Shown here in pieces: positions 11,791 to 64,000 of a stretch of DNA of 64,000 bases. Location: the NCBI RefSeq assembly GCF_036588685.1, contig NC_086376.1:90995630-91059629 (forward strand), written 5' to 3'. The stretch's first letter is position 1; the number at the start of each line of letters is the position of its first letter. Below the pieces are notes generated by a model. That model did no database searches and was not told the DNA's origin. It worked only from the letters and a program-made list of their open reading frames with translations. Made by a program: the position numbers and the translations under genes. This DNA is from Mytilus trossulus. Taxonomy: Eukaryota.

Positions 11791-13169
11791 ACTGTGAAAA
11801 ACAAACCTTGCTTATAATTTTATAAAAAGAAGATTTTGAGAGAAAAAAATCACTTTTTTACTCATTTTCTGGCGTATATACTAAATTTAGTCCTGGCATC
11901 TAAAATGATTTAATTTTCTACTTTTATCATTATTCAGCTGTTGATATGCTTTCTCATGCTTATGCTGAAGCCTATTGACTGTTTTAGATTGTTCATTGTT
12001 GTATTTAAGACTCAAGTTGATGATCTGAGGCATTTAGTCGTTGGTGTATTTAGGGCTCCAGTGTACGATATGATGATTTGCTCTTCTTTGTTGGATTGGG
12101 GGCACCGGTCAATGATCTGGCCTTGTTGTCATAAAACATTCGAGTAATTTTTTGTCCTCGTACTCGAAATTCAACCAATCAAAATGCTGGATTTCATGTT
12201 TCGAGCATGATTTTTTTGCCCCGAGCACTGAGCAAAGTTTTGTGATTTCAACCCCTGAGGCCTTTATGTTGTTGGTGTATTTCCAGTTCAGACCTATTAA
12301 ACACTTGATTTATATGACGATTTTCTATTTATAATATTGATTTGAGACAAGTGCTGCTCGAAATGGAAACAATTGTGTTTATATGATGTCACAATTATAA
12401 AAAGTAAGTATAGTATAAAATTATCAGTTAAGTGGTCTCGTCGCACAGTTTTTTTTTTATAAAATATATAAAATCTTCAATTGTGACGAAAATAAATTCC
12501 ATTTGTCGAAACCGAAATAACACATAACACAATTTCCGTATTTATAAATAGTTGAAATTTGAAATGATATGTGAACAAATGTATTGTTGAGTTATAGTCA
12601 GATAATTAAAGTTTGCGTCGGAGGTATTATGTCAATAATCACTTTATTGAGGAAACATTGATTCAATTGAGTTTCTGTTCAACTATTTATGAAAACAATG
12701 ACAGAAATGAAATGAATTGAGAAATGCGATTCCAGGGTTCTAAAGGGAACATGTAAGAACATAACTTAAATAATTTATTTTAATTGTACTTTAATGTAAC
12801 TCGTAAATTTGATGAAACACTACCGAAAACATGTTCAAAGCATAATAAGTCTATTGGTTTCGTTTACCTACCTAAAATTGACCTTGGTATTGATAACGGT
12901 CATCCATTAAATTTTTTCATTCGGCATTGGACTGCACTATAGAGTTCGACGCTTTCTATGTGTTAAAGCTCACCCGTGAGACAATTCTTTTTGGGGTCCA
13001 AAAGTGGCCAGTTTCAATACACTGTTCTTGCCCCCTTCCAACGTATCGAATGTACAGTGCCAGTCCAGCATTCAATCCAAATAGACCATTTTAAACTGAA
13101 CCTACCAATAGGAATATTTCGTGGTTGTAAATAAACTCATCATAGTTACCAGGACTACATTTTGTATAT

Positions 13170-13213
13170 ACGCCAAACGCGCGTTTCGTCTGCAAAAGAC
13201 TCATCAGTGACGC
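13170..13213 (-). ncRNA. Minimal type I hammerhead ribozyme (family 1A), GUU triplet, in element ~13122-13330
   Basis: Minus strand gcgtca-CTGATGA-gtct tttgc agac-GAAA-cgcgcg-TT-tggcgt: intact core with stems I and II and a palindromic stem III. Confidence 0.85.
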
Positions 13214-13529
13214 TTGAATCCAGAAAATTTAAAAAGGCCAAATAAAGTACGAAGTTGAAGAGCATGGAGGACCAAAATAACTAAAATTTTTGCTAAATAA
13301 ATCTACAGTAAGTTTTGCCTGAGGTAGAAAACGGTCTAATCTATAAAAATGAAAAACGAGAAACAGCTATGAACCACATCACCAGACGACAACCACTGAA
13401 CATCCGATTCCTGACTTATACTGTTTACTAATCCATCATTATTTATTATATACTTATGACGTGGATCGGAATTGTGTTACAAGCTATAATCAATTTCGAG
13501 TTCTTGTCTTTCACTTTCGCTTGATACTT

Positions 13530-13900
13530 GGTCTATCTGCCATTTTATGTTTTTTCATTAAACACTTATATGTTTTTAAAGTGATTATAATATTACAATG
13601 TTGACTTTTGTACCTCAATTTTTGACTTTTTAGATATAACGTCTGTTTGTTTTGCCCTCGCATTGTTGTCATTATGACGTAAATATATGCGGCTGTCATA
13701 TTAGAGAGATGTTTAGCTAGCTTTACAACCAGATTTAATCCTCAATTTTCTACATGAGAAGATGCCATACAAAGTGAGGAATATAAGAGTTGTTTTCCAT
13801 TTGTAAGATGTGTTTGAGTTTTTGATTCTGCAATTGTATAAAGGACTTAACGTTTGAATTTCCCTAAAAAATCGGTATTTTTGTTATTTTACTTTTTTCA
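13530..13900 (+). mobile_element. 3'-UTR/pLTR fragment of Penelope-like family B
   Basis: Colinear with 26140-26488, the 3' region downstream of the RT copy at 22813-24908. Confidence 0.75.
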
Positions 13901-16250: not shown

Positions 16251-18461
16251 CCGAGTGTTTTACCCAAACTAGAGTTTGTTTCGTTTTAGCATGAGAGTTA
16301 TGCTTATGAGTCTTTAGCGTTTTGGGAATAAGTGTCTAAACTATAGTTCATTTTACCAAAGCATATACGTCTGATTTTTAACTTCATAAGAGGATTGACA
16401 TGAGTGTTTCCTTACACTTAAGTTTATTCTGTATTCTGCTTTAGTTTTTCTGTCTACTGCTGAAGTAATAGTTGTATGTCTGTGTGATGTCATTGATTTG
16501 GTTATTTGTCAACGTGTGATTTATCATCGGTCGTGGTTACAATCCAAGCGTTTAAACCGTTTTTATAGGAATTTTTAACTTCGAGAATGGGATGAAAAAT
16601 TGTACATACTCACGTCGAATCTTTTTAAATGTCTTTCAAACTTCATAAATAATCGATATTGTCTTTTCAGAACCAATGAATACTATAATAATCATTTTTG
16701 CAAAATCCTGATAAATTCCAGCATGTCATAGTTGAGAACCAATCGTACAAGTTCACCAGTACTGCTCTGATCTGTTTTGACCTAGATAAGCCTTTTCCTT
16801 TGTGTCTAGCTTATATATACAACTAAGTATACATAAGCATTTCTTTTCTATCGTATCTATTTCAAAAATGTATATTGATATCTGGACACAAAAACCAACT
16901 AATTGACAGGTTAGGAAACCTTCATTATCTTATTTCAATTTCAAAATACCAGATTTGCTGCACATATTAGTGTAAATGTTTGCCTATAAATGTCCTTCTT
17001 GTTAAACTACCCTAAACAATTTATGCAATCAAAACAACGAAGACCTTCTATTTAATAGCAAACTAAGAAGAAGAGGTAAGATTGCAAATGAAACTACTCA
17101 CCAACAGACACCAACTGACGTAAAAGTAAGCAACTATAGAAAAAAAAACCATATTGAACGGCAACGAATGACGACCCTTAAATTACAAACGCTTTATCGT
17201 AATCCAGCCAGTTATTCCCTGATCGGGCCAAACCATAAAAATCATTTAATACACAAAACATGAAAAAATAATTGTCTTTTCCTGTGCAAAAATTTTGTCA
17301 GTTGTTTCATTTGTTTTCATCTCTGGGATAATCCTATATGAAATTTGACAATGCTAAAAGATCTTCGATATTAATTGTCGATAGTCGACTTGTCATTTCA
17401 AAATTATTAGATAGTGTAGACGAATTCTATAATAATTTATTACAAGTAAATTCTGAAATGTTAGGAATGACCGATTAGCATTTCTAGTGTGAGTAAAAAT
17501 AATATATAATCAGCAATTTCACTTCGATAATTGGCATCAAATATCGTTACATTATTTACTTTAAACAATGATGATTTCACTATTGTTTTAGGTGATTATA
17601 AAGGAGCGTGTATCTTGCTTAAAACTTAAATTTTTCTTTTTCTTAATATAAGTTATACAATTTTTATTACAGACGTATATGGACATGTTATAATTCACTG
17701 TTGTTTTGTGAACGGGAAACGCAAAAACACCAATGCTCTCTTATGTTAATGGTTCTGTTGAGTCGTAGCTTGAAAGGTATTTCATATTAAAGCATTTATA
17801 GTGATAAATGTTAGGGTTTGATTGTACTTGGTTGAGGAAACTCCGAATAGTCTCTTCGAATGAATGAAAAGATAAAGTGTTTATTTCATTAACTATAACT
17901 GGGTGGATACAGCTATTCTACCCCCCCCCCCCGCAAAAAAAAAAACACCAACAGAATTCCATATGTATTTTGGTAGCTAACTGAAAAATGACAACGAACG
18001 GATAAATTTGTTACAACCAGGGTCATTTTGAAACTGAATATTATCATACATATTATACAATTGGTGAAATACTAGCGCAAAACTGCTGCCGACATTTTTA
18101 GTCTCCGAGGACGGTATTAGCTTTGTAGTCAGTAATTTTGGACCTCCACGACTTTTATCATATATTTTGTTTTCTCTGTTTATAGATTAAGGTAAGATTT
18201 GGCCAAATCAAAATTTACAAGAAAATCTTTCAATATTTAAAACAAAACGATAAAAATTCAAAACGGAAGGTCCCTGATCAAAAAGCAAAGTCAAAAGAAC
18301 CACCAAACGAATGGGCAACACCTGTTGCTCATGTAATTTCAAAGCCGGTAAATAGTCTAATTCGGCAGGTCGCATTCATAAAAATGGAACAGGAATGTAG
18401 ATACGACATAAGGAAAATAAACTCATCATAGATAACAGGATTTAATTTTTTTTCCACTAAG

Positions 18462-18503
18462 GCCAGACGCGCGTTTCGTCTTCAAAAGACTTATCAGTGA
18501 CGC
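18462..18503 (-). ncRNA. Hammerhead motif (family 1A), probably inactive (G8A), in element ~18415-18625
   Basis: gcgtca-CTGATAA-gtcttttgaagac-GAAA-cgcgcg-TC-tggc; CUGAUGA is changed to CUGAUAA. Confidence 0.75.
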
Positions 18504-21500
18504 TCGAATCCATAAAAGTTAAAAAGGCCAAATGAAGTAAGAAGTTGAAGAGCATTGATAAGCAAAATTCCTTAAAATTTGTCAAAAACAGCTCAGGTAG
18601 TATATTCCTGAGGTAGAAAAGCCTAAGCAACATATCCGATATTATCTATGAAGCGTTTATTCCATAACAGTCAACCAATTTGTGGAGGTGTTCGTAAAAT
18701 TCACGAAGTGAGGATTCAAATTCATCATTTGGAACTCTTCGTTTAAAAAAGGTCACAATTGGGAGTCTGAAATCTTTTGTCGTTAAGTTTGGTTTTCCAT
18801 CGACCCTCATTGTCAATACTTATATGTTAGTCCTCATCAAATGGCAATATCTATGACTTCACTACACACACGGACATAACGAATGAGTGTGGATATATAA
18901 ACACCGTTTGATAGAGAAAATTGAATATCGCCTCCTGAGAAAGGAAAATTAACAAAAGGGAATGAAAAATCGTCTCTTTTGTCTTAAATATCAGTATAGA
19001 GTTTTCTTTTATAAATTGAAATGTCTCAAATTAGAACAACCCACTATTGCAGTTTAAATTAGATTTAGTTAAACTAAAATCCTTTGAGTAAATGTCAGTA
19101 GTATATTTAGAGAACTCTGGATTATAACTATATGTGTTGTTGAATGTATCAATTAAATGTAACAATGATGTGTCGTTACTGAGTTTGTTCATAAACTAGG
19201 ATTGGTAGCAGTACAGGAATGAATCTTCTATGATAGGGGTGCCGTTAGTGCCCATAGGAATACCTACTACTTGTCGATACATTTTATTGCCGAAACGTAA
19301 ATACATGTTGTCCAGGAGCAAATTTAAAGCTTCAATCCTATCTTCACATTTCCAGTAAGTGGTTATAGCATAAACTGGCTAAATATCTAATGTAACCTCC
19401 TATTTGGATGACAGTGTTGAATAGCCAAAAAGTCGGATACACAAATATTCAAATAGACAAGGTATAAAGCTGTAAGGGTGTTAGCAAATCAAGTAGTTAG
19501 TGATGTTGTGCAGAATCCGACTGTATTGTTTGATTTTTATTTTGAATTGTTTTTTGTTTTGTTTTTTGTACATATAATAGATTGAAGTTGTTAATCTTAA
19601 AATTATTTCATGACACGTTTGTTTCTTTACAAGTGTGTCCCGACTGATCGAAACACAGTCGTTCAGGATTGCGTGATAAAAAAAAAGCAAAAGTTTCCAC
19701 AGTCTCATCATTATGTGTCTTTTACTGTACAGAAAATTTGTGCGTTGTTTGATTTATTTATATCTCCGTGGGTTGTTTTATATAGAATTTGACGTTGCTA
19801 AAACATGTTTGCAAGTAATTGTTGATATCATGATATTGGAATAGTCTTCTCTTAATCATTTAAAATATATCACTGATGAATAACACATTATTAGTGATGA
19901 ATAAATTCTAAAATGCTAGACTTGACCGATTTACAATTTCAATATCAGTAACAATGTTTAATTAGCACATACTTTTCGATAATTGTCATCAAACAGTTGC
20001 AGTCGTTAATGAATTAAATAGAAAGTGATAAGTGAACCTTTAAAAAAATGTGATAATGAATGAGTGTTTGTCTTGTTTGAAAAGTGTGATTTAGCATTTT
20101 TTTCTTTCACAGTGATACAATTTATATATCAAACATATATGTACGTGTTGAAACACTCACAGCTTCACGGTGACTTTGTGAGAAGGACAAGCAAAACATC
20201 AATGTGTTTCTATGTTTTTGATTTTGCCCAGAAAATAGTTTATAACGTTATGACGTGTTTAAGCCTCCATATCTTTCAATGATTTGGGTATGAGCGTTTA
20301 TGTATGAGTTAAATTCAGAAGGGCACATCGAACGAACGGAATTTTAAGTTCATTTCATTTACTAGCACTAATTAAGAATAGATATACGAATCTGCCTGAC
20401 TGAAGGTAAATACAAAAAAGAGAGTACCATAGACAAAATGGTAAAAACTTATCAACATACGAGACGACAGACAAAAAACAACGTTCATATTCTTGACTTG
20501 TCACATGAACTTTCCCTAGAAAATAATGTGTAAACCTGGTTGTACTAACCAACAACTGGTATGTTATACCAAAACACCATCATGACCTTTCTTGTAAATT
20601 ACAAAAAACACACAAGCATTACTTTTCTTTTACAATATTTTATTCTGGATCTGCAAACGTCAAGATAAAATAATCTTACCAAACTGTACTTTATTATTTT
20701 AGAACAACTTGGAATGTATTATGTTTATATGCCCTTTTTATATTTTTTTTCATTCATTTTCAATTTGTTTTGAATTATGAACTATTGATATCATTGGTGT
20801 AATATTGTTACATTACAGCTAGTATTAATTAAACTAACACTTGATGACTTGCCTTGGAAATAATGTTCATCTTAAAAAACTTAAAAAGCAAGATATGATT
20901 AAAATACGTAGAAATATTAGAAGCTAAATAACATTAAGAGACTTTAAAATCTGTAAATTCAAAAAGAGGTACTTCTATGAAATAAAACGCTTAGTTATAT
21001 TTCCCAACGGATCAAACAGAATCAATCTGCCACATTCCTGGCTTGGTATAGGAATATATTGAAGACATTAGTGGGTTGACGGAACAAACAGAAACACTCT
21101 GCCACATTCCTTCCTAGGTTGGTAAAGGAATATATTGCAGAAATTAGTGGGTTGAATTGGGTTCATTATCCTGTTCTATACAGTATAAGGTATTTATATA
21201 GTAATATAGCCAAATGGCAAAAAGTTCCTAAAAGAGTGTAACAGGACAAATTCTAAATATATACATCAATATAGTCTGACTTTTCTTTCGGTATATGCCA
21301 ATACCCGTTGTAAGTTGTTTAGTTAAATCCTCTTTTTGAAGTTTTTCGGACACCTGAAACATTGAATGTCATAAAATTAAGTTACTTACCTATAAATAAT
21401 TCATTTGTCGTTTGTTTGCGTTTTATTATTTAACCAATGGTCGAGGAAAACATTTTGAGTATTGAGTACCTATAAATATTTAACCCCGTCGGATCATAAA

Positions 21501-22812: not shown

Positions 22813-24908
22813 GTATATGCCCTTCTTTCTCATCTACATCATCCGTTAGGGTTACATTTCATTAAAACTATTCTTTTTTCGCTGCCTGTTAATTTTCTAA
22901 AATGTTTGAGAGATTATGCACTTGACAAAGGAGGCACTAATACATTTTCTCCAATATACAGACGTGTCAGTATAATTTGTGATGTAGCTCTTTTCCGTCT
23001 CTTTAAACAAAAAAGATCGGAACCTTTACATGGGGAAAAGAGGAAATTCTCTCCTGTTTACTTTACCAATAATGGAATTGATGAAATCAACATCAACAAC
23101 GTTCTTCATCAAAAGGAGGTAACATCTAAAATTCCTATTTATTTTCAAAATCAAATTGTTCCTATTGTATCCTACAGTTACACCAAAATCATTGCCCCCA
23201 AAATATTTAACTATAAACAAGCATTTCAGGACCTTGATTTAGAACAATGCCTAAAAAAACCTCTGACATGTGACTGTTCCCACTCGCCTTACAATTACAG
23301 CCCCTCTGGCCATGTAATTACTGGGGATCTAAACATAATTCAACATGAAAATCTCCGAAAGGTAACTTCTCATGGTCCTATGTTTAGAGAACTCAACATA
23401 TCAATTGGAACCATACCTTCAAAATAATTCTGGATTACATTGAGAACTACGCCAGAGCATGGGCTAAACGTGAAGAAGTTCAACTGGACACTTTGTCAGA
23501 ATGGGTCAAAATAATCAGGTCTCTGATAAAACGTCGCATTCATAAGTTCAAAAACTGTGTGAATAATCGACTTAAGTCCATTTTTAGTGACAAAGAGGCA
23601 GTAAAATGTCTATCATCTGTTCAAGATAAGTATGTTGTTGTTCATGCGGACAAAGCTTCAAATAATATTGTCTTTATATGCAAATCGTACAACTACGAGT
23701 GTCTTATAAAAGAATTAGGAATAAATGGTTTTGGCGAATCATAAGTCCTTCATGGCTTCTATGAACATTGCATTGAACAACAAATCGGAGGACTTACCTT
23801 GTTTGTATTGGATACCTAAATTTCACAAAATTCCGTACAAACAACGGTACATTGCCGGCTCATCTGCATGTTCTATTTAAGATCTGTCCATTAGATTGAC
23901 TAAAATTATGTCCGCAGTTAAAGAGGGTGTTCAGATATACTGTGAAACTGTTTACTCGCGTAGTGGTATTAACCATATGTGGATTCTTAAAAACTCTAAA
24001 GAACTTCTGGATAATTTCAAATCTTGGTCTTTTTCCGAAATTAGTTCTATTAAAACTTTTGATTTTTCATTCTTGTATACAACCATTCCCCATGTGAAAT
24101 TGAAAAATCGTCTTAAAAAAATAATCCACAATGCTTTTCATCATAAAAATGGTAGCATACACTATAAATTTATCACTTTGGGATACCATAAGGCATATTT
24201 TGTTAATAAGGAACAAAAGGGAAAACATACTACAAAGAGGAACAAGTGATCAGTATGCTGGAGTTTCTTATTGAAAACTTATTTGTTGAATTTGCAGGTA
24301 GACCTTTTCAACAAATTGTCGACATTCCTATGTGATCGAACTGCCTTGCCGACATTCCTTTGGGATCGAACTGCCTTGCCGACCTCTTATTATTTTCATA
24401 TGAATCGGAGTCCCTTCAGACACTTGTCAAAAACAAGAAGATAAAAGAAGCCAGGTTATTTAATTTCACTTTCAGATATATTGATGATGTGCTTTCCTTT
24501 AAAAATCCGAACTTTTCTGATTGGTTTCCATTAATAAACCCACCAGAACTAAAAATTAAAGAGACAACAGACACGACCTCCTCAGCCTCATTTTTAGACT
24601 TATACCTCGAATTTGACATACACAGTCATCTCAGTACCAGAATCTATGACAAACGAGACGATTTTAATTTTGAAATTATCAATATCAATTTCCCCCACCT
24701 TAGTAGTAATATACCAACTTCACCTGCATATGAAATATACATTTCCCAACTTATGTGGTATTCAAGACCTTTCAGCTTCTATTCAGACTTTGTAAAACGT
24801 CACCAGTGTCTGAGCAGAAAATTGATGAATCAGGGGTATGTCAAAGAATTTCTCGTCCTTTTTCTAAAAAAGTTCATCGGAAGGTACCAAGAACTTGTTG
24901 ATAAATAA
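22813..24908 (+). pseudogene. Penelope-like retroelement RT, Naiad type (CxC linker + RT + thumb), 5'-truncated and frameshifted
   Basis: Consecutive ORF pieces carry TCDC..GHVITGDL (CxC linker), ADKASNN, LYWIPKFHK, KTFDFSFLYT (motif A), IP.GSNC (B'), FRYIDDVL (C) and YDKRDDFNF..FPHLSSNIP..YISQL (thumb). The ORF ends without a C-terminal GIY-YIG. Confidence 0.9.
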
Positions 24909-25189
24909 TCCGTATCAACTGCACAAATAATACAAGATGGTTTGGAGTCTTGATTTTGCGTACTGGCGTTGGTTATCATCTTAATAACATGTTAAAGTAT
25001 TCTTTTTTTTCTGTCTTTATTAATATTACTTTTACTGGTAAGTCAGATTTTTAGATATCCATTTGATGTGACTCTGTGCTTATGTAAAACATCATACTTT
25101 GAACGATAAAATTATTTCATTTATTAATATGTATATATGTACTCGAGATTTCGCCAATTTAGACGCACCGGTACAGCGGATCTATGTAC

Positions 25190-25573
25190 ACTCCCTAAGA
25201 ATTAAAATATTATCCCACCACCACAACAATCCCCACCAAACACCGCCCAAGGGAGCGTGTAGGACACCGGAAAATATGTCATTATGGTGGAGGAAGCCGA
25301 AGTTCTCGCAGAGAACCACCAGGCCACTCGGTGGAAACAGACAAACCAGAGAGATATCAGATGATTGATCTCCAGGTCAAATTAGGGGACAACTTTGACC
25401 AACCGAGGCTCCCAAAGTACCCATTCTAGTTTAAACTCCGGTCTGGGTACCAGAGATGTGTGCGAGAGGGTGAAAATAACCCTTCTGATGTACTGATATT
25501 TTTAGCACCCCGAGTGGGAATCGAACTCGGGACCTTCAGCACTGTAGCCATCGGTCTTAACCACTTGACCACG
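25190..25573 (-). mobile_element. tRNA-derived SINE
   Basis: The minus-strand head gtggtcaagtggttaagacc...gagttcgattcccactcgggg has Pol III A and B boxes and a D arm but no anticodon stem. The body contains ggtggttctctgcgagaacttcggcttcctccacca, which resembles the conserved central domains of mollusc SINEs. The 3' boundary is approximate. Confidence 0.8.
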
Positions 25574-25685
25574 AACTTACATTATTACTATATATTACTT
25601 TTTCTCATGGATCTTGTCATACTTTGAATGACTAAACTATTTTTTTCATTAATAATACTTTTTCTATTGAAATCTGTTTTTAATG

Positions 25686-26488
25686 ATCCACCATTTTCTA
25701 CTTTTGAAAATGCCTGTACCAAGTCAGGAATATGACAGTTCTTGTCTATTCGTTTTTGATGCGTTTTGTTATTTGATTTTGCCATGTGATTATGGACTTT
25801 CCGTATTGATTTTCCTCTGAGTTCAGTATTTTTGTGATTTTACGTTTTATACATTTGACGTGACTCTGTACTTATGCATCTCGCCATACTTTGAACCACA
25901 CAATTATTTTATTTATTATTTTTACTTTTACTGTTAAGTCTGTTTTTTTGTTATATCTACTTTGCGGGACTCTGCATTTATGTGTGCCGGCAAACTTTTA
26001 ACGACAAAATTATTTTATGTCTACCTGTGCGAATTTCAAACGCGGAATTTTACACCAGGACTTCCATCCTTTACGGGTAGACTCTTCATAGATATATAAA
26101 TTCGTAAAAGATAAGCAAAATGAGGATGGTAAATTTGATGTATGCCGTTTTCTTCTTCTTTGGTACATTTGTTGTATTTATAGTGATTAAGATGATAACA
26201 CAATGTTGACTGCTGTACCCCTAATTTTGACATTTTTACTCTTTGAGGATGTTTGTTTTGTTCACGCATCGTTGACAATGTAGTGGAATTTGATGAGACT
26301 TGCATACAAGTGAGATATTTAGCTAGCTATAAAACCAGGTTCAATCCACCATTTTCTACATTTGAAAATGCATGTACCAAGTCAGGAATATGACAGTTGT
26401 TATCTATTCGTTTGATGTGTTCGGACTTTTGATTTTGCCCTTTGATTTAGGACTTTCCTTTTTGAATTTTCCTTCGAGTTCAGTATTT
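25686..26488 (+). mobile_element. Family B 3'-UTR/pLTR segments: terminal fragment plus long copy
   Basis: 25686-25850 and 26345-26488 share tccaccattttctac...gtaccaagtcaggaatatgacagtt...gagttcagtatttt. 25852-25910 repeats 25060-25120. Confidence 0.8.
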
Positions 26489-27715
26489 TACAAAGTCTGA
26501 GGAGCTGCCAGGGGTTGAATATCGGATAAGTTGCGAAACGTATATCCCATAATCAGGTGAAGTTGGTATATTGCTACTAAGGTAAGGGAAATTGATAAAT
26601 CTGGGGGATATACTAATAGAACAAATCAGAAAAGTTCGGATTGTTAATGGAAAGAACATCATCAATATATCTGAAAATGAAATTAAATAATCTGGCTTCT
26701 TTGCTTTTTTTTACAATTATCTGAAAGAACTCCGATTCGCATGAAAATAAGGAAAAGTCGGCAAGGTGAGGCGCACATTTCCAAAGAAATGCCATATTCA
26801 ACAAATAAGTTGTCGATAAATCCAGCATACTGATCACTTGTTCCTCTGTGTAACACCTTTTACTCTCTTGTTCGCTATTAACCTAATATTATGATATCCC
26901 AAAGTAATAAATTTATAGTGTATGCTACCATTTTCATGTTTAAGGGCATTGATAATTTCAGGCGATTGTTCAATTTCACATCGGGAATGGCGGTATACAG
27001 GTTTGAAAAATGAAAAGTGTTTTCTATGGAACTAATTTCAGAAAAAGACCAAGATTTAAAATTATCCTGAAGTTCTTTACATTTTTTAAAGAATAAACAT
27101 ATGGTTGATATTACTACACGAGTAAACAGTTTCACAGAATTTCTGAAGATCCTCTTTCACTGCGGACAGAATTTTAGTCAATCTAATGGACACTTATTTA
27201 GTGGAACATTAGGTATTCAATACAAACAAGGTAAGTCTTCCAATTTGTTGTTAAATGCAATGTTCATTGAAGCCATGAAGGACTTATGATAAGCCAAAAT
27301 ATAATCCTTGTCAAATGATATGTTCTTGTATGTATGATTACCTGATCATAGTGCTCATTTACACCTAATGCTGTTATTAGACATTCGTAGTAATACGATT
27401 TACATACAAAGATAATATTATTTGAAGCTTTGTGACGTTTTATCAGAGACCTGATTGTTTTGACCCATTTTGAAAAAGTGTCCAGTTCAACTTTTTTTCG
27501 TTACATCCATGCTCTGGCGTATTCCTCAATGGAATTCATAATTATTTTGAAGGTATGGTTCCAATTGATATGTTGAGGTTCTCTTAACTTAGGACCATGA
27601 GAAATTACCTTTCAAAGATTTTCATGTTAAATTATGTTTAAATCCCTAGTTACAACATGGGCAGAGGGGTTGTAAATATAACGCGAGTGGGAACATTCAC
27701 ATGCCAGATGGTTAT
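26489..27715 (-). pseudogene. Second, inverted and internally deleted copy of the same Naiad-type RT
   Basis: Minus-strand ORF pieces DNFKSWSFSEISSI, CAPHLAD, EARLFNFIFRYIDDVLSINNPNFSD and FPYLSSNIPTSPDYGIYVSQLIRYS are closely similar to the 23250-24795 copy. Confidence 0.9.
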
Positions 27716-29074
27716 TCAAACGAATGAATAACAACTGTCATATTGCTGACTTGGTACAAAACTTACATAATCGAACCCGTGTTACATACGAAACAGGATG
27801 GGGTAACTGGTCCGCAGCATCAGTGAGACCACCGATATATGGTTGAATTAGTGTTGCTAATTCTTTAGTTTTTCTATGTTCTGTTTTGTATACTTTTTTG
27901 TTGTTGTTTTTTCGAAAGGGCTTGTCAGCTTATTTAAGACTTATGAGTTTGGATGCCCCTTTATCTTTTTCTTCTCTTTTTAAACACACACAGCTCTACT
28001 TTACTTTGTAATGAGGATGAACATTCCCATAAATATTTGTTTCCTGCGTGACTTTTCATGTAAATTACATGAATTGAGAATAGATAGCAATTTTCTAATA
28101 TACCAGCACACAAAAATAACCTTACTTGTAAATTCAATGAAAAAGATCTATTAAGAACTGTCAAAATGTATACCAACACACCAGTAAAACCCTTATTGTA
28201 AAATACATAAATTAGGATCTACAAGCAATTGTGAAGACAAAGATAAGTATATCAAAAATATGTATTATTATTTCATAGTTAAAAGTAAATTAAGACAAAT
28301 ACTTTACTCCGAGGAAAATTTAAAAATATTGGTCCCTATTTAACGGCAAAATCAGAGGTTCAAACACATCAAGTACTAAAGGGGGTCATCAACAGAGATG
28401 AGTGTTAGTATGACAAGTAAATTCTAACTTGCTAGAAATGAAATATTTTCATGTTATTTTGGGTATATTTAGATAAACCTTCATAATTAATTTCTTAAAC
28501 TCAAAAATTAAAAGCCGAATATAACGAATAAACACTGCCAAAGTTAAAATTCTAAAATGCTAGACTTGACCATATTGAAATTTGTTTTTAGTAGTATATT
28601 CTTATAAGCACGTACACCAGCGCATTTGGCATTCCATAAAACAATTTGAAGACATATTAGAAGTGATAATTTGACATTTATACTAAAGTGTAAAGTGCGT
28701 TTCTTGCTTGAAACGTGTTATTTTAATAAATTATGTCTCAGTGACACAATTTATCTAAGATACATAGAAACGTTTTATTTTAATGTTTTTAAGTCTCAGT
28801 GACACACTTTATTTAATATACTTATATAGAAATGTAATGTACAGATGACGACCCAAAAGTTGAAATTGTCGTCTTTTTTTGTTTTTAACTTGACCTACCG
28901 ATTTAAACTTTTCAATGGGTTGGTACTTATATGAGCAACACGACAGGTGTCTTATGCGAAGCAGGATTGGTATAATCTTCCAAAGCACCAGTGAGACTCC
29001 AGATGAATGTTGAGGTCCGTGTTGCTCAACCTTATGTTTTCTATGATGTGTTTTATAAACGCCTGTTTATTATT

Positions 29075-29482: not shown

Positions 29483-30284
29483 GATTCCGTCAATTTACTA
29501 ATCCCTAACGTTACAGTATATATAAGCATCCAGGTTTTCAAGTAATGAAATTGAACGTTCCTTGATGACGTATCAGAAAGGGCGCATCAAATGCACACAA
29601 TTTTAAAGGTGTTTTCATTCATTTACTAGCACACGGTCGATACTGCTGAAAGTGGACTGTGAGTAGCCAAGACATCCTCAGCTGTGTCGTTAGTCATGTT
29701 AGTATAGTTAAATAAGTTTGTCATAGATGACAGTGTATATTATTATCAGTAGAATACACAATTCAATACATCGGTTTGTTATGACCATTATTGCATTCTT
29801 CTTACTTTGCTTATGACATGAACGAATGCAACTTTTCTTGAATTTTTGCTTTTGTTAAATTGAGACGCAAAAGGATTGAAAAAGAGCCAACCCAATATTC
29901 AATGTCATTTTGTACTGTTGAAAATGTTTTCGGTCCTTTTGTACTTTATGTGTTTCTCTTTCGATCAAGGAATCGTCTGTCAACTCCTTGTCACATATTT
30001 GTATTGCTCTTTTATGTTACATTTTCATCCAATGTATGCTTCTCTATATCATTCAGTGTACACATACTGTATATTTGTGAAAGCCACACAAATAACGAGC
30101 AATGGGAATGAGAATCTTAAGATACCCATTAATGCTTTTTTTCTCAACTTAAGATTCAACAACATCTAAAGGTTTTTGTTTTAATTGACTGATAGTTTCA
30201 CTCCTCTTGCCATTCCTAAATCTATTGTCTTGTATAGTCTTTCCTTTTACAAGCCAAAAACCGTTGCAAAAATAAAATTTTGAT

Positions 30285-30445
30285 ACTGATATCTATGATG
30301 TGTTTACAACCACCGGGTCGATGTCACTGTTGGTGGAGTTTGTATTTCCCGCGGATATCACCGAGCCAGTAGTTAGCACTTGTATGTGTTCACATGAATT
30401 ATCATTGATATGGTCATAATGATTAATTTACTGTTATAAAACATG
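30285..30445 (+). mobile_element. Downstream continuation of the hammerhead family 1A unit
   Basis: Begins atctatgatgtgtttacaaccac, overlapping the end of the 13122 copy (tatgatgagtttatttacaaccac on minus). It continues gggtcgatgtcactgttggtggag...atcaccgagccagtag; a related tract lies at 29633-29700. Confidence 0.55.
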
Positions 30446-31408: not shown

Positions 31409-31474
31409 TAAATTATATAAACAAACGACAGCTACTGTACACAGTTATCAAAGGTACCAGGATTATAATTTAGT

Positions 31475-31518
31475 ACGCCGGACGCGCGTTTCGCCTACAT
31501 AAGACTCATCAGTGACGC
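31475..31518 (-). ncRNA. Minimal type I hammerhead ribozyme (family 1B), intact core, GUC
   Basis: gcgtca-CTGATGA-gtct tatgt aggc-GAAA-cgcgcg-TC-cggcgt; one mismatch at the first pair of stem I. Confidence 0.8.
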
Positions 31519-32074
31519 TCATATCAAAATATTTATAAAGCCAAACAAGTACAATGAAGAGCATTGAGGATCCAAAAATTCCAAAAAGTTGTCCCAAATA
31601 CGGCTAAGGTACATCAGATTCCTGACTTAGAACAGGTGCAAACATTTGCAAAACTTTATCTGTTGTATCCTACATTGCAAATTCGATGTGTTCAGCACAG
31701 TCACCAAACATTGAATTATTTATTGAGAAGGGAAAAAACAAAGAGTCGGAACACCTGACACTAATTCCTTAAATCTGACCTAACACATCCTTTAAATGTC
31801 TACTTTACCATTTTTTTTTATTTGAACATACTGTTGCGTTAATTCATTGACAAACAATTTTTAAGGAATGAAAAGTTCACTTAAAGTTTGTAATAGATAA
31901 AAGCTCTTTGAAATGTTAGAAATGACGATTTCCAATGTAATATTAATGTCATTTTAGCACTTAATTTATATTTCATTAAAAACAAATCTAATCAATAAAC
32001 CATATATATTGAGAAAACTTGTTTTATTCAAAGAAATAAAATGTTATCAATTCGATATTCAAAACAGGCGAGAC

Positions 32075-41578: not shown

Positions 41579-41622
41579 ACGCCAGACGCGCGTTACGTCT
41601 ACATAAGACTCATCAGTGACGC
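41579..41622 (-). ncRNA. Degenerate hammerhead (family 1B; GAAA to GTAA) in element ~41547-41685
   Basis: gcgtcaCTGATGAgtcttatgtagacGTAAcgcgcgTCtggcgt. Confidence 0.75.
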
Positions 41623-41844: not shown

Positions 41845-41888
41845 GCATAACTGAAGAGACATGTATTGTCGAAATGCGCATCTGGTGC
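41845..41888 (+). ncRNA. Minimal type I hammerhead ribozyme, family 2 (AUC triplet)
   Basis: gcataa-CTGAAGA-gaca tgtat tgtc-GAAA-tgcgca-TC-tggtgc: full core, stem II gaca/tgtc, palindromic stem III atgcgcat, stem I with one mismatch. Confidence 0.8.
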
Positions 41889-42099
41889 AGGAAAATTGGT
41901 TCGTTAATGATAGTATACCTAAAACGACAAAATTATTTTTCATCTACCTGTATATATTATTAAAACCGTTTTTTTTTAAAGTTATTTTTTCGAAGGGTTT
42001 TATATTTCGCAGTGGTGTCTTACCATGGCTTTGTTTGGACTTTTTTGTTTGATTTTTGGTCTCAAATGTTTGTCCGTAATATTTACTTTTTTAACTGTG

Positions 42100-44955: not shown

Positions 44956-45042
44956 TGTTATAGTTTGAACATATTCGGAATTTTGGATTCTCAATGCTCT
45001 TCAACTGTGTACTTGTTTGGCTATCTAAATATTTTGATATGA

Positions 45043-45086
45043 TCGGCACTGATGAGTCTTATGTAGACGAAACGCGCGTCTGGCGT
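45043..45086 (+). ncRNA. Hammerhead (family 1B), intact core, weakened stem I, in element ~44975-45119
   Basis: tcggca-CTGATGA-gtcttatgtagac-GAAA-cgcgcg-TC-tggcgt. Confidence 0.8.
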
Positions 45087-47529
45087 ACTCAATTATAATC
45101 CTGGTACCTTTAATAACTATTGTATACTGTGAAAGAAATGGATTGAAACCAAAAAAACTATACATATGAAGTACGCTCCGAATTACAGTATATAGCAATA
45201 CAATGCTAATATGAACATGCAATATTCCGCCTATGGGAAAGACAACACTAGGCATTTGATTCCCGGCTTGGTATGATAATGACATAATATATTAGCCAAC
45301 AAGCACCACCAAACTCTCATTTATAGTCCGAGAACAAATCAAAACTGAGGACGATGAACGATGAAAGAAAGAAAAAAGTTTCCTAAATGCTGTAAGCCCT
45401 TAAAAGTTGTAGGAACATAGTAATAGGGTTTTAAAAATAGAGTTGACATATTTTAATGATTAGGACGTTTGACGACAAGTGTTACATATTACAGGATTAT
45501 CTGGATTTTACCATGTCAAGGTGCAATGTGCAATGAACATGGAAACGAATTTTGTTATAAGCCTAATACCTAGCATGTCGTTATGTTCTAGTGTATTGTT
45601 TATTTGTATATTTCTCTGTTCTGAATGTTCTTTCATTTATTATAATCCTAACATGTAAGAATGTTATATTTAACATTGCCATAAAAGCGAGAAGTTAGGC
45701 TAGCAAATTCAGATTCTTTTTATGAAAATGAACTGTACCATGTCAGGAAAATGACATTGTTATCTTAGCTTGTTTTTGTGTGTGTTGCATTGTCGTTTGT
45801 TTTTGTTGCACTTTAGTGTTTCTGTTGTTTCGTTGTTTTCCTCTTTTATTTGATGTGTTCCCCTCGGTTTTAGTTTGTAACCCGGATTTATTTTCTTTCT
45901 ATCGATTTATGACTTTCGAACAGCGGTATATTACTGTTGACTTTATTAAGGTTGAACAGCGGTATACTACTGTTGACTTTATTTATGCTGTATACTAACA
46001 ATTGCAAGCCAAGCCGAATGTTACGTGTATGTTGACAAGGAAACAGTCCATGTGACGACATGACACTTGCCCGGCAAATTATTGTAATTCAGAATAGACA
46101 TGCACTCTATCCGCATTGTGCATGACTACCAGAGAAGCAGCAAATAGCCATTTGATATTTTAGGTGTGTCACCGATATAGCCGGGTAAAATGGCGTTCCG
46201 GCTAAATGTAAATCAAGAAGGAAGATTTCGCTCCTTAAACTTTTATTTTAGCAGTCCGGAAAAACCGAACAACAAACTCAAAACTAAATGTAATGTAACA
46301 TACAAACAATAACAATATATATAAGCACAAGGAATTACAGGATTAAGCAGATTAACAGATGACAAATTAGAAATAACAATAGATTAAAAGAGTAATTAGT
46401 GTCCGACACGTATTTGTAAACCATAGTCCAAACTGTCACAGAGAATAAATAATGAAATAAATAGAGTAAATGCATTCAAGGCCTAAATTTACGACAAAGT
46501 CTAGATAAATGCAAAACCTAAATATACATTAAATCAATTGAATAACTAAAATGTTGTTTAAAAACTAATTTTATTGCACAGTCTAAATAGTCCGGTCATA
46601 CCACCCCGGATCGGTTAAACAAGACCCTGAACATACGAGTTACATGATTGCATTAGCCGACTTTATATACAAATGTGTGTGGCCAAGTGTACGTTATTTG
46701 CATGTTTATTTTTCGAACTTTGTTTAAAAAATTGAAAATAAGACATTTGGTGCATTATATTTTCAGATGTCCAAACAATAAAAAATGGTGTAACAGTTCC
46801 ATACAATGTTTGAACAATTTGACGAACATGATTTGTTTTATTTTTCGCGACCAAGCCCGCATCCTTTTGCTAAAACATGATCGCATAATGACCAGCACTT
46901 TTCCCGTTTAATAATATACAATTTAAATGAGGCGCTTAATAGATTATTCCATCAACTCACTTTCAAAACATTTTCAGAAAACTAGCACCAACTTTAATTG
47001 TCCATGATGGTCGAACCGTCGAGCGGTTTCATAAAAGAAAAAAAAATAAAAGAAAATATAAAGACTTTATAAGCAAATTAAATCAGAGCAACAACTTCTA
47101 CGAGTGAGGAAGAATGTCCGCAATTATTAGTCGTATGTTTATTAAATGTCTTAACCGATTCATTTTCTACAGACCAAATTAAGTGACTGATCGCAGACTC
47201 TTTATTGTTGACGTTCTGAAATCTGCATCGTAGCCATTACTATTATTTTTACGCGAAGGCTCTGCAATATTTTCAAGGAAATGTTTTTTTTTTTGAAGAC
47301 ATATAAACGTTTTATTCCTAAATATTTCCTGTGTACAATTACCTTAGTCGTCCAGGATCAGGCTAAGGGTCCCTGTTTACAAAAATAAACCATCTATCCA
47401 GGGGATAATTATAATTATAGGGTACCCACATAAAAGATGTGTATAATTATAGGGTACCCACATAAAAGATGTGCATCAAGGAAATGTTTAAAATATTCTA
47501 GATTAATACAAATTTGTAGCAATAGATCA

Positions 47530-53600: not shown

Positions 53601-54998
53601 TAAACGATTTCTTGTATTAACCACTTCTTGTTTATCACCTTGAACACTAGACAGAATAAATAAAAAATATGTCCTGCAACATTTTGACACAAACAGTTTC
53701 AAATCTACCTAAATTTGTTATCACATTGTTTAAATTTTCAGATGAGCTTTACAAGTGCCCTGAACCTTTAGTATCGATTGCAGTTCATCAATTATTTTTT
53801 TTATAAAACAAAAGACTCAGCAAGACAATACCGAAAACTATAAGACTACTACTATTTGGTACTTAGTAGTTATTATCAAATAGTCCGTTTCTATTTATGT
53901 TTGTTTTTCTTACTCTTCAGATGTTTCCGTTGTTTTCCACTTATAGTTGATTTGTATCACTAGGTTTTAGTTTTTTACCCGGATATTTTTAGACAATATT
54001 TTGTTTTCTGATTACTAAATAAGTTGACTATATATTAATGTATACTATATATCAGGTTATGCTTGCATCTCACCATAATCGTGGTTTGTGCCTTAAAAGG
54101 GATATCTAACTCTGTTTCATGTTGCGTTTAATGGCGTTGACAATGCATAATAATTGGCGGAACAAAAAAAAACAACTAAGACTCTGAAACTAATAAGATT
54201 CACAAATGAAGGAAAGATCAATTAAGGCAGTAACTAACCGACTGGTAAGTTAAATGGGGTCTAAGATATAGAATTGCTTCAGCCAACCATGGCACATAAA
54301 CTTGTTTGATGGTTTACGTTATAATATATTTTAACTGTATGTGAATGAATAGGAATGATGATGTTGCATGTTTAAAAATAAGTTTTTAACCCACAAGTTA
54401 TGCTCTCAATCATCAGGGGACTAAGTGCATACGTTTTTATCTGGTTTTTCAATATACAAATGTTTGGTGTATTGCCGAACCGATCAATTTGGGTACAGAT
54501 CTTACAATGATAAACCTTTATTTCAAATTGAAAAAATAAGACTTAATGGTCCGTCTGAAATCAATATTCTGGAATTACCTTCATCAAACTAAAACGTATG
54601 AAAGCATGGGAATTACAAAATGTTGACCGAAATTACAGAAGTTTATTGCAAACCACTTCAATTGGAATACATTTTATATAAACTATGTTATAGAGTCAGT
54701 TGATAATGTACCAGAAGCTGCACGATATCCAAATCGAAAATATAAAAAAAAGAGCAATAGGGTATCGAAGGAGTTTCTTAACAACAAAACATTAGACTTG
54801 TTATTATTGAATTGATATGCTAAGAAATTTTCCACAATTTTACGAAATAATACAATACAAAATAGAAAGTTTTTAAAATAAACTTGTTAGACTGAAATTC
54901 CTCCAGTAAAGAAAATGCCATACAAAATAGAAAAGTATCATTATGAACTGGTTTGTCAGAACAACCATCTGATTTAAAAGAGACTTTTTTGGATTCGA

Positions 54999-55042
54999 GC
55001 GTCACTGATGAGTTTTTTGTAGACGAAACGCGCGTCTGGCGT
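54999..55042 (+). ncRNA. Minimal type I hammerhead ribozyme (family 1A), intact, GUC
   Basis: gcgtca-CTGATGA-gttt tttgt agac-GAAA-cgcgcg-TC-tggcgt. Confidence 0.87.
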
Positions 55043-55997
55043 ATATATAAAATTTATTCCTGGTTTCTATGGTGAGTTTATTTACATACGTCCTATTCTT
55101 AATTTCTCATGTTACAATAGATAAAGTAACTATTACGTCAAGGTTACGGAGTGTTTTATCTCATCATTAAGGAGACATTCACTTATCAGATATAGATCTT
55201 GTTTATTATATAGGTGAATGTTCCACACCTGAGTTCACCACACATTTTGTGAGGGATTCGTGTTCCTGAGTCTAGTTTTCTATGTTGTGTTTTGTTTACT
55301 TTGATCTTTTCCTGTCTCATCAATTTAGTTGTCCGTTTGTTTTCGACTAAGGAGTTTGAACTTACTCAGGTATCTTTCAGCTCTCTTCTAAGAATCTTAT
55401 ACAAATAGGAGTCTTTTTGTATTGTTTTCCTGGTCGTTAATTATTATATACAATCCACCCTTAATAGAAATTTATAAAATAAATGCATTCGTAATATTTT
55501 CCCAATACGTAACAATTTATAACAATACAACAATACATATGGGACGTATGTCTACGAAATAGTGGATGGAAACTGGTTTCAAAACTAGCTTAATCACTTT
55601 CTTAATCACTTTCACTTGTATAACAGTCAAATTCCCTTATATTGTCAACGATGCGTGAACGAAACGAACAGACATATTATGAACAAATGTCAAAGATAGG
55701 GGTACAGCAGTCAACATTGTGTTATAATCTTAATTACCATAAAGAAATAACAAATATGTTACAAAGAAGCAAAACAATGGCAAATAGACCAAGCATATTC
55801 GCAAAGATTAAAGATAAATTTACCATAGAACAATAACACAATGATGGGAAGTACAGAGACATGTAATATATGAATATTGAGTGCCGGGTGTCTTTTCAGT
55901 TTTTTTTTACATCTTTGACCATACTTTGATTCACTTTTTGTAAAAGTGGCCTTTTATGTATAATTAGTTATCAAAGGTACCAGGATTATAATTTAGT

Positions 55998-56041
55998 ACG
56001 CCAGACGCGCGTTTCGTCTACATAAGACTCATCAGTGACGC
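55998..56041 (-). ncRNA. Minimal type I hammerhead ribozyme (family 1B), consensus copy, GUC
   Basis: gcgtca-CTGATGA-gtct tatgt agac-GAAA-cgcgcg-TC-tggcgt. Confidence 0.9.
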
Positions 56042-56074
56042 TCATATCGAAAAAGTTATAAACCAAACAACCCC

Positions 56075-60324: not shown

Positions 60325-60680
60325 TATATGCCTTTTTGTGCTTCTTTGTTACATATTTGTTTGTTTTATATAGTGATTATCACACTATATGTAGACTGCT
60401 TTACCCCTATTTTTTGAATTTTTCACCTATTATGTCTGTATGTTTCGTTCACGCATCGTTGTAAATATAAGCGAATTCGATGCGACTGTAAAACAAGTGA
60501 GAGGTTTAGCTAGCTATAGAACCAGTTACAATCTACCATGTTTTACATAAGAAAATGCCTGTACCCAGTAAGAAATATGACAGTTGTTATCCATTTGTTT
60601 GGTTTGTTTGAGCGATTGATTTTGCCATCGGATTAGGGGCTTTGCTCGGAGCTCAGATTTTTTTTGTGATTTTATTTTTT
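60325..60680 (+). mobile_element. Family B 3'-UTR/pLTR fragment
   Basis: Colinear with 26140-26488. Confidence 0.8.
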
Positions 60681-62100
60681 ACATACAAACTGTGAGCAAA
60701 CAATAATACAGATAACAGATTTGCGCAAACTTGTCAACCCGGCCATTTGATAAATACTGTTAGTAAGGGGTTGTTCTTCAACTATGTGTCATAATTCTTA
60801 ATTATAGATATTATATAACATGAACTCTTTAAACAAATATCCTGTAGCTTGAAATAGGATTTGGTTTTGGCTTTTGGAACTTTATGCTTTTATTTTGAAT
60901 ATGCAAATCTTGAATCCTGCTAAACAAGTCGATTTGGAAAGTTCTTTTATTTAAAATAACAAATAGCAAAGTAAGCTATGTAAATTATGGTAATTCACTA
61001 CTTTTAATAGAGCTTTTAATACTTGAGGGTTTTTTTCTTGAAATTACAACAATTATCTTATTTCGTACAACTCAATGAGGCTATGACATTTATATAACGT
61101 ATAAAAGGTCGTTGTTTTAAAAAAAATCTTTTTTAGACTATATTCAGTACAAAAACACGTCATCTTGTAATTCAAGTTTTGACATCATCATTAAAATCAT
61201 CATCATATGTTTAGTTACTTACATACATACCAAAGTCACGTCAGCCCACTCTATCAACCCAAAATATACATGTGGGCGTAAACAACTCTACCAAAACCAC
61301 AGAATGAACTCTGAATAGCTTGGTAGTCTACGATTAAATAAACAGTGTTGAAACTTAAAAATTATATTGTTTAGACTTGTATCTGACAAAAAAATGATGA
61401 TGCATCAAGATATATGAATTACAAATTATAGTCAGCTTTCTTATTCAAACACAAATGCAATAAATAACTCACTTACTACCTTGAACAGTAGGCTAATATC
61501 CACAATTCACTCTACTCAATGGCCGAGCTCACCTCTAGTTCTTTATGAGGATACTATAGCTTAATGTTTTATTCTGTAATATTTATTTTGCGAACTGCTG
61601 TTTGTAATTTCGTTTTGGAATTATGTTTGTTTGCATTAGCCTTTATGTTCCTAACTCGTATAGGCTGTATGATACTGTCATACGAAGCGCAACCTGTTCA
61701 TTAACCTCTCAAACATGCGTTAAAAAATCCAAGCAAGTGTTAACATGACATAAGCGTTTTCTTGGAAGAAAGATAGCAGGTATGGTTTTCACCTGTGTTC
61801 TGTCATTTATATGGATTAAGTATTTCCTGCTAACAATTTTCAAGTGTTTTCACAATGTTTGATGTCGAAAGGACTTATGGGGGAATAGAAATGTTTGACA
61901 AATTCGATTTTTTGCTTTTTAATATTCCTACATGCCAATCTAAACGTTAACACAAAAGATAGACTATACTTATCAATGATTACCACGACGAAATATATGT
62001 TAGAACTCGTATCGTATTTAGCAAAACTTTGGCTTATTTTGGTCCCCAATGCTCTTCAAATTTGTACTTTATTTGGCCTTTTTAACTTTTTTGGATTCGG

Positions 62101-62144
62101 ACGTCACTGATGAGTCTTTTGTAGACAAAACGCGCGTTTGGCGT
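62101..62144 (+). ncRNA. Hammerhead motif (family 1A), probably inactive (G12A), in element ~62010-62185
   Basis: acgtca-CTGATGA-gtcttttgtagac-AAAA-cgcgcg-TT-tggcgt. Confidence 0.75.
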
Positions 62145-64000
62145 AAATGCAAAATTTAATCCTGGTATTTATGATGAGTTTATCTGCTATGATAAAAACA
62201 TAAATATTGAAATGACGAGAAGAAGAAATTGCGGTGACGTTGGTATTAAATTCGACGCAAGCCATGCTATACTTATCTCCCCCAAGGAGGATTATTTGAT
62301 AAAACCATTTATTTGTTTATGATTGTGTGGATAATCCCATAGATCTGTATTATGATATAGTGTGATATTCAGTGGTACATGGGGATCCTTTTTACGTTAT
62401 TGGTGTTAACCATGAATTGTCACAATAACATTAAAAACAATATTAGCGTCACTATCAGATAGTGTTACAAGTTGCATTACCTGTTGTAGGAAAGGAGAGA
62501 AGTAACAATATACAATAGTACATGTAGTATTGACTTTTTGTTCTTCTGTCCTTTTTATAAATTGTCACTAGTCTTATCCTTTACACTTGAGGCTTAAAAG
62601 TGTATTTCGATATTTGCGACACAATTTAAGTCATCAAAGATACGAGGCTTATAGTATGGTATGGTACGTCAGATGGGTCAATATCTTTAATTGTTTTACA
62701 TAGGCGGTAATGGTAACGTTTTTTCCTGAAGCTTAGTCCATATCGTAAATTTGGATGTGTATGATAGCTCGTTTCGAAGCTGTGACATTTTCATATATGT
62801 AGTTATATTTTCGGGGTACGAAGTGATATTACTTTTTGTTTAAATTAGCATACCCAGAATATCCTTTCGTGATGCGGCTCCTTGTGATAAAATATCACCA
62901 TTTAACACAATAAATTCTTTGAAATTTTATATTTTGAACACATTTAATAGCTCCATAGTTTTACACATTTATTCTATGTTCCTCTACTTTCCTAATCACC
63001 ACAAATGGTTAAGCTCAGTTATTTGTAAAAGATAGAAACATGTCCAATATCACTTAACCCCGAGATTTCTTTCTTTACACGTGACTTTTGAGTTTCTCAT
63101 TTCGAGGCGCATTAGGGATGTTGTCCCAGATCGCGTTTTCTCTAAATTAAACGAATCAATTGCGCTTGAATCAAAACTTTTGAAAGGCAAAATCATGTAC
63201 GAATGTGAAGAGCATTATAAACCCAAATTTCAAAATGTTATTCCAAATACGGCTTAGGCAATCAATGATAATTCAACATCATGTACAGGAAATTTACAGA
63301 AAATCAACATAGCCATGATATTTCATAACAATACAAAAGTTCTTATCACTTGGCTGGTGAAACTCTCGAGACGAAACTTTCATCGACAGTGGCATTACTC
63401 AGGTAAATGATATTTAAAAGCAATATTAACTATTCTTGTTTGATGAAAAGTGTATCCAAATAAAGGCAACAATAGTATTCAAAAGTCAAAAATCGTTTCA
63501 AAGAAAACAAATCAGGGTTATAAATTAAAATTGAGGGAAACACTTCAACTATAAGAGGAAAACAACGTAACAACAGAACAACTAAAGTGCAACAAAAACA
63601 AACAATGTATTCAACAGTTTAACAGTTATTCAACTTCAATCCTAGAGATGCAAATGCAAATATAAAGGTTATATATAATATAAACGAATTTAATCTTTCG
63701 TTCGTCCGATTTGATTAGCTATGAATGCTAGGACGAATACTTTTGAAGTCAATGATGGATGGATACCTAAAAAGCAGCTGAATTTTAGAAGAAGAAAAAA
63801 AAGAAACTCAATGTCACCTCGAAAATGCTTTTTGGCTTTCTCATCTATATGTTATATTTGACTATCCACATTTTCCCCGCCTTCAACACACAAATAGCTG
63901 ACACATTGATTATTACGTCTGCAGCAAATTAAGGTGTGACTTGTACATTTTTTACCAAATTTATATCTTAAAACTATCAATTTTTTAAATTAGTTATAAC

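Follow-up and report, generated by a model that had tools for sequence, protein, structure and literature searches.

The stretch of DNA considered here is a 64,000-nucleotide (nt) segment of the Mytilus trossulus genome (NCBI RefSeq assembly GCF_036588685.1, contig NC_086376.1, positions 90,995,630 to 91,059,629 of the forward strand; hereafter the window), which carries ten hammerhead ribozyme motifs. As judged from sequence, these ten motifs are 5'-truncated single stubs of the non-long-terminal-repeat (non-LTR) retrozyme already published from mussels. The stubs were probably inserted by the reverse transcriptase (RT) of Naiad, a Penelope-like element, which would bind a stem-loop that the retrozyme shares with the 5' end of Naiad and start approximately 7 nt upstream of it. 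Observed directly were the retrozyme family, its tandem arrays elsewhere in the genome, a 3' end approximately 35–47 nt past the ribozyme cut site, scattered 5' ends, and the same stem-loop, in the same register, in an intact Naiad lacking a hammerhead core. Both ribozymes and repeat have been published before; the candidate helper and the start signal are unpublished as far as could be found.

The retrozyme family and its insertions

Searches of the 1.30-Gb genome with three window copies returned 1,748, 5,122 and 1,256 candidates, and 40 from each were scored (L-numbers below denote stretches fetched from the genome). At 90 loci, the hammerheads of tandem copies were spaced by 340–369 bp in subfamily A, 352–359 bp in subfamily B and 324–393 bp in subfamily C. 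The retrozyme units of these three subfamilies are mostly 340–393 bp in length, with a GC content of 37–39% and an inter-subfamily identity of 76–85% over aligned columns (85% for B and 76% for C, both against A). Subfamily A differs from the published 375-nt retrozyme of M. galloprovincialis at 3 of approximately 110 positions, compared by eye (PMC4918200, Additional file 11), and by this match the motifs belong to the Mytilus non-LTR retrozymes, as a preliminary description of the window had proposed. In the available text on M. galloprovincialis, the repeats are approximately 350–390 bp in length, low in GC and arranged in tandem, with type I hammerheads of two ribozyme families, a monomer that cleaves at approximately 0.1 per min, and abundant circles (PMC7229834). 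The B unit (354 bp) fits the size of the Mg353 construct described there. Tandem units of approximately 350–390 bp with less than 45% GC are likewise formed by the family in M. trossulus, but not by the window copies. The latter had been described as monomeric insertions; at 90–215 bp, against a unit of approximately 340–393 bp, they are 5'-truncated stubs only. The available portions of the earlier papers give neither a fixed 3' end nor a helper.

Long arrays exist in the genome, including runs of dozens of units, and one array contains at least 20 identical 356-bp units (L163:2634-10000; 20/20 identical). Units diverge by 1.2% within arrays (48 pairs) and by 2.6% between them (171 pairs), a difference that fits rolling-circle copying and equally well local homogenisation. 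Contigs from four runs that were RNA, or guessed to be RNA, covered the retrozyme unit in 30 of 30 bins (contigs only, with no silent stretch as a control). Two independent copies of subfamily A (L115:1268 and L140:5577) have lost the ribozyme core by precise deletion between 5-nt direct repeats. A fourth dispersed hammerhead family (L154:3717-3758, L216:476, L221:4300, L228:5837) combines a C-type stem II with other 8-nt palindromes and a different tail.

An evenly spaced sample of 80 stretches of 10 kb (800 kb), chosen to avoid query bias, contained 57 insertions, 53 of which remained after four shorter than 40 bp had been dropped. In 33 of the 53, the 3' end lies +30 to +56 nt past the cut site (binomial p 3e-24 against a uniform distribution, with the bin set after looking). 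The 5' ends are scattered, the densest bin of equal width holding 9 of 51, and only 4 of 53 insertions reach 340 bp. Outside the long array of L163, 27 of 30 tails are terminal. Loose ends with unrelated AT-rich flanks also pile up at 55961 (+43) and 55965 (+39) among the listed matches of three of four DNA runs (contigs; 160–546 records each). The combination of 5' truncation and a fixed 3' end that is expected of a passenger element is therefore present. With 13 retrozyme fragments in 64 kb, the window is approximately three times as dense as the 800-kb sample.

Among 103 insertions, target duplications of at least 9 bp were not found (0/103), and those of at least 5 bp occurred in 29, compared with 17.8% in shuffled pairs (p 0.006, at one of seven thresholds). 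An inverted 5'-truncated copy lies beside the 5' end in 4 of the 103 rows, two of which represent the same pair. No element-skipping joint marking an empty site in other individuals was found among the matches listed, which repeats swamped. It is most improbable that the family spread as a satellite at the DNA level, by excised circles and gene conversion, with the fixed end as a recombination hot spot. Such spread would be in keeping with the long arrays, including the identical units of L163, and with the failure to find long target duplications. One fixed and one scattered end are, however, the signature of target-primed reverse transcription, and the fixed end coincides with that of Naiad. 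In addition, compensatory changes in both the hammerhead and the stem-loop point to selection on RNA.

A stem-loop shared with Naiad

When the Penelope-like RT core of the window was used as a query, 33,482 candidates were found in the genome, many of them with an open frame of 1056 amino acids (aa). This frame contains an N-terminal GIY-YIG domain, CxC and DKA motifs, and a C-terminal RT, and on these sequence features the element is a Naiad by the criteria given in the accessible text of PMC8557442. No hammerhead core was found in the 4.3-kb Naiad unit. The stem-loop in the retrozyme (approximately 68–70 nt) is the GC-rich segment that follows the tail, and the usual 3' end of the insertions lies approximately 7 nt before it. 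At the tandem (5') junction of Naiad, just before the first Met, there is a stem-loop resembling that of the retrozyme, and the predicted folds of the two have the same topology. A covariance model, R1, was built from 28 retrozyme segments only, with no Naiad among them, and was run on 60 sources (343 kb). Under a rough calibration, the Naiad 5' junction scored 30.7 bits (E 1.4e-5) at 10 places, and two further places scored 28.1 and 21 bits; in the 800-kb sample, all R1 matches above 50 bits lie inside retrozyme copies. All seven pairs of the outer stem are kept between the retrozyme and Naiad, three of them by double change.

The two elements also end at the same place relative to this structure. 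Among model matches in the 800-kb sample, 3' ends fell 0–12 nt short of the stem for 28/52 retrozyme matches and 29/50 Naiad matches, and the median distance from end to stem among these near-end matches was 6.5 and 7 nt respectively. The retrozyme and an autonomous element therefore share a cis element placed alike relative to their ends, which is the second feature expected of a passenger. A pattern describing the stem-loop with a long spacer had 57 matches in the genome, of which 30 were fetched. Of these, 25 proved to be Naiad-type, leading into the Naiad frame in 23 cases. In its retrozyme form, the pattern had 9,988 matches. Other similarity between the retrozyme and Naiad units is limited to one 24-nt match (E 0.03), and the fact that the stem-loop is the only clear match in a 4.3-kb unit suggests selection on that piece.

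The stubs could also have been copied by another Penelope-like element, belonging either to the hammerhead-bearing clade with a C-terminal endonuclease or to an unsampled Naiad subfamily, in which case the Naiad stem-loop would be shared by descent or capture only. This is unlikely, even though the genome also has open frames with a C-terminal GIY-YIG, the Naiad stem-loop differs by an inserted hairpin, and a 2026 preprint, in its accessible part, ties Xenopus retrozymes to Penelope-like pseudo-LTRs (pLTRs; bioRxiv 10.64898/2026.07.22.740005). R1 found no match at the C-terminal GIY-YIG loci within the 343 kb, the end register of the retrozyme equals that of Naiad, and apart from the 24-nt match the 70-nt stem-loop is the sole clear resemblance between retrozyme and Naiad.

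Several results weigh against copying by Naiad. With regard to the insertions, 20 of the 53 in the sample end elsewhere. Stopping of 5' ends at the cut site had been considered as a sign of cleavage in vivo; such ends showed no clear enrichment (1/25 in the random, 2/11 in the window and 8/92 in the targeted set). For most copies in the window, and even for the perfect hammerhead at 55998, thermodynamic folding does not favour the active form. With regard to the stem-loop, the Naiad matches are two near-identical sequences and count as one observation, and the three adjacent compensatory pairs represent one lineage split, a count reached by 33 of 500 shuffles. RNAalifold applied to the retrozyme copies alone recovered the outer stem and missed the inner ones, with a covariation term of -0.23. 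Because the Naiad stem-loop holds an extra inner hairpin that the retrozyme lacks, another, unsampled Naiad or a different element could fit better; the sampling of Penelope-like elements covered 20 GIY-YIG loci and 20 longer stretches of 615 candidates. Nor does the fixed end prove a circular template, since the Penelope-like element of a lizard uses uncut RNA, according to the available text of PMC11167929, and uncut multimers give the same pattern; that argument was rejected. Copying of the retrozyme by Naiad, with Naiad as the candidate helper, is likely from the sequences.

Under the Naiad reading, tandem arrays would be transcribed, and the transcripts would cut themselves and be ligated into circles, as has been published for the family. 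The Naiad protein would bind the stem-loop on the retrozyme RNA, nick AT-rich DNA and prime internally, approximately 7 nt upstream of the stem. Copying would then run back through the tail and into the ribozyme and would usually fall off within 300 nt. That nearly every stub carries a hammerhead would be explained by this, since the tail and the ribozyme would be copied first and copying would stop within that distance. As the stubs contain neither the stem-loop nor a second ribozyme, they are likely to be dead ends for both mobility and circle formation. The template would be either a circle, which is not proven, or an uncut multimer. On balance it is somewhat more likely than not that the retrozyme, as a viroid-like circle of RNA, parasitises the ribozyme-less Naiad by carrying a copy of its 5' start hairpin. 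What matches helper to passenger would then be a signal inside the RNA, 3' of where priming occurs, and not a 3' tail common to both, and the stem-loop would be a portable 70-nt signal at which telomerase-like RTs start rolling-circle copying.

Some further observations concern the same structures. The stem-loop was considered as a second ribozyme and this was rejected, as three tandem loci gave no Rfam match (E up to 10) beyond Hammerhead_1 and three weak unrelated ones. Seven copies of the Naiad stem-loop form a mini-array with a 131-bp period at G000:C12:27544253-27545094. In one Naiad subfamily, 27–29 nt of the retrozyme B tail are inserted in one repeat of the 3' untranslated region (UTR; L224:554-582 and 5154-5182). 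In sister repeats of L224 the site is empty, without a clear duplication, and the insert has spread along with that subfamily; shared ancestry was rejected as the source of this 29-nt resemblance in favour of a short insertion.

Hammerhead motifs and stubs of the window

The preliminary description had placed ten hammerhead motifs on both strands, six with the full CUGANGA...GAAA...UH core and four with mutations. All ten are present, and alignment confirmed this division. Intact cores are found at 13170, 31475, 41845, 45043, 54999 and 55998. Those of subfamily A lie in a 210-bp stub at 13122..13331 (−; hammerhead 13170-13213, with a GUU triplet instead of GUC and a predicted cut after 13176) and a 104-bp stub at 54983..55086 (+; hammerhead 54999-55042, predicted cut after 55036). 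Subfamily B is represented by stubs of 201 bp at 31436..31636 (−; hammerhead 31475-31518, predicted cut after 31481), 148 bp at 44974..45121 (+; motif 45043, in which stem I is weakened to 4/6 pairs) and 114 bp at 55957..56070 (−; hammerhead 55998-56041, predicted cut after 56004). The subfamily C stub, of 90 bp, is located at 41830..41919 (+; hammerhead 41845-41888, predicted cut after 41882). Five of the six intact-core motifs form at least 5/6 pairs in stem I, 4/4 in stem II, and stem III.

The remaining four motifs have altered cores. In subfamily A, the 215-bp stub at 18413..18627 (−; hammerhead 18460-18503, motif 18462) has G8A and is likely to be inactive as judged from this change, and the 171-bp stub at 62013..62183 (+; hammerhead 62101-62144) has G12A and a GUU triplet. 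In subfamily B, the 143-bp stub at 41542..41684 (−; hammerhead 41579-41622) has A13U, and the 186-bp stub at 41111..41296 (−; motif 41146) combines G12U with the loss of an A and a disrupted palindrome. The earlier designation as single-change variants thus suits 18462 and 41579, but 62101 and 41146 each have more than one change. Similarly, the 8-nt palindrome reported for the stem III region is perfect in nine of the ten motifs and broken at 41146. Three further fragments had been overlooked: a tail-only fragment of subfamily A without a ribozyme, spanning the stretch between the cut site and the usual 3' end (11868..11921, +); an internal subfamily A fragment, also without a ribozyme, with a Naiad-like stem-loop at 30304-30372 (60 bits; 30275..30435, +); and an old, decayed B-like fragment of approximately 71–73% identity, whose ribozyme is broken and which matches the stem-loop weakly at 63349-63409 (63132..63395, −).

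Chance origin of the motifs is excluded, because fully paired motifs were absent from all 30 of 30 Markov-simulated windows, compared with five in the real one, and because the exact intact-core pattern had 16,671 matches across the genome and its reversed control none. In the Rfam check that had been proposed, six of the ten motifs were listed under Hammerhead_1, at 25.9–33 bits (the top score being that of 55998), all below the gathering score of 34 bits. Intact tandem copies elsewhere in the genome also score at most 33 bits. Motif 18462 drew only a Hammerhead_3 match (E 4.9), and the other three were unlisted. A 14-row hammerhead alignment has 95.8% of its cells paired and contains four compensatory pairs, the covariation among copies that had been anticipated. 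These pairs set the 41845 copy of subfamily C apart from the other nine, of subfamilies A and B, and reflect a single split between subfamilies, seen at four sites.

Helices I, II and III of the window motifs are 6, 4 and 2 bp in length and are accompanied by a palindromic tetraloop. This is the canonical metazoan type I form in the accessible text of PMC4209133, so that, contrary to the earlier designation as minimal, the motifs are not minimal hammerheads of the Penelope kind. The minimal Penelope hammerheads described there share the type I topology and the palindromic helix III region. They differ, however, in having no helix III and a helix II of 7–8 bp, and in residing in pLTRs that flank an RT frame, none of which is seen in the window motifs of this non-coding repeat. 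Another kind of hammerhead, in which helix II is longer, was found at L220:2422 (−) and L228:1803 (−) and 5331 (+). That of L220 lies approximately 100 nt downstream of a Penelope-like frame with a C-terminal GIY-YIG, and this type is likely to be the true pLTR-type ribozyme of the genome.

In the preliminary description, the copies were retrozyme monomers whose minimal hammerheads would depend on dimers for cleavage, give rise to circles and cut any RNA reading through the locus; for whole monomers of this kind at these loci, such a reading is very improbable. Dimers are possible, given that the loop is a perfect palindrome in nine of the ten motifs (self-duplex energies -10.5 to -13.3 kcal/mol), and contigs of RNA runs, for which there is no silent-stretch control, have ends at the 3' end of the family, next to flanking sequence that is unrelated. 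Yet the copies are shorter than one unit, and the nearest same-strand pair (41146 and 41579) consists of two mutated cores with unrelated sequence between them. The architecture is canonical, and rather than depending on dimers the published mussel monomer cleaves by itself (PMC7229834, in its available text). Release of a circle by one stub alone is impossible, because each stub has a single ribozyme. Cutting of read-through RNA may apply at most to the six intact copies, if they are transcribed in sense, with a single cut in each case. Ranking the activity of the copies by folding energy was also considered and rejected for lack of discriminating power.

Other features, known systems and significance

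The window contains a Naiad at 22817..26489 (+), which is 5'-truncated and frameshifted, retains CxC, DKA and the RT core, and has an interrupted 3' UTR; it shares 89% identity with an intact copy of 1056 aa located elsewhere in the genome. A more degraded Naiad piece lies next to it in the opposite orientation (26486..27716, −), and further short Naiad 3' ends are found at 13587-13897, 21963-22405, 43252-43480, 55557-55782 and 60328-60634. No host gene was established: the 119 window frames of at least 62 aa gave one sub-threshold Pfam match, to MRP_L53, which was judged to be due to chance. A possible first coding exon, in which a start codon with GC-rich surroundings precedes a donor site, lies at 32308-32353 (−), and a short candidate exon of compatible phase at 20461-20515. 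If the former is real, introns could contain motifs 31475, 18462 and 13170 in the sense orientation. Three long tandem arrays are present, at 2675-5682 (45 bp x 67), 34225-40707 (80 bp x 81) and 47783-53524 (66 bp x 87). Two of them, those with periods of 45 and 66 bp, open as frames of 1,000–1,900 aa on both strands because these periods are multiples of three, and the 45-bp satellite has one 33-nt AT-rich match to the retrozyme tail. Two long hairpins or palindromes occur at 9961-10052, with a sub-threshold mir-507 match, and at 56249-56347.

Naiads are abundant in bivalves and show 5' truncation and partial tandems (PMC8557442, in its accessible part), as does the retrozyme, and the stem-loop and end register are common to the Naiad and the retrozyme of this genome. 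In contrast, the retrozyme is non-coding, bears a hammerhead and shares only approximately 70 nt with Naiad, and the accessible part of that paper describes neither a 5' stem-loop nor a hammerhead-bearing passenger. The closest mechanistic parallel is the protein of PAc, a Poseidon element of the lizard Anolis. In the available text (PMC11167929), it initiates internally in an AC-rich stem-loop downstream of a hammerhead, with AT-rich targets, a binding region 3' of the start and no need for ribozyme cleavage. PAc belongs to another clade and is autonomous, and its mechanism was shown in vitro, whereas that of the retrozyme is inferred. The Xenopus preprint likewise proposes that retrozymes use Penelope-like machinery. 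Its accessible part relies on co-occurrence and pLTR similarity and mentions no mollusc, Naiad partner, start site or cis element. The consulted part of PMC10886601 has no bearing on a link between retrozymes and Naiad. No report of such a link, of the shared stem-loop or of the fixed end was found in the literature searched, which excluded most subscription papers, Repbase and some supplements.

Which enzyme copies animal retrozymes, and how copying is primed, has been an open question since these elements were defined, and a 2020 review states, in its available text, that the retrozyme repeats show no motif pointing to an autonomous partner (PMC7761336). The hammerheads of the window are themselves ordinary and already published. 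The shared, compensated stem-loop, in register with the 3' ends of both elements, provides a candidate enzyme, of which intact copies are present in the genome, and a candidate 70-nt signal. Both could be tested with the assay used for the lizard element, as described in the accessible part of PMC11167929. If copying by Naiad is correct, the thousands of isolated hammerheads in this genome would be explained by the position of the ribozyme in the first 80 nt copied, and the stem-loop would be the first candidate Naiad start signal that we have found described.

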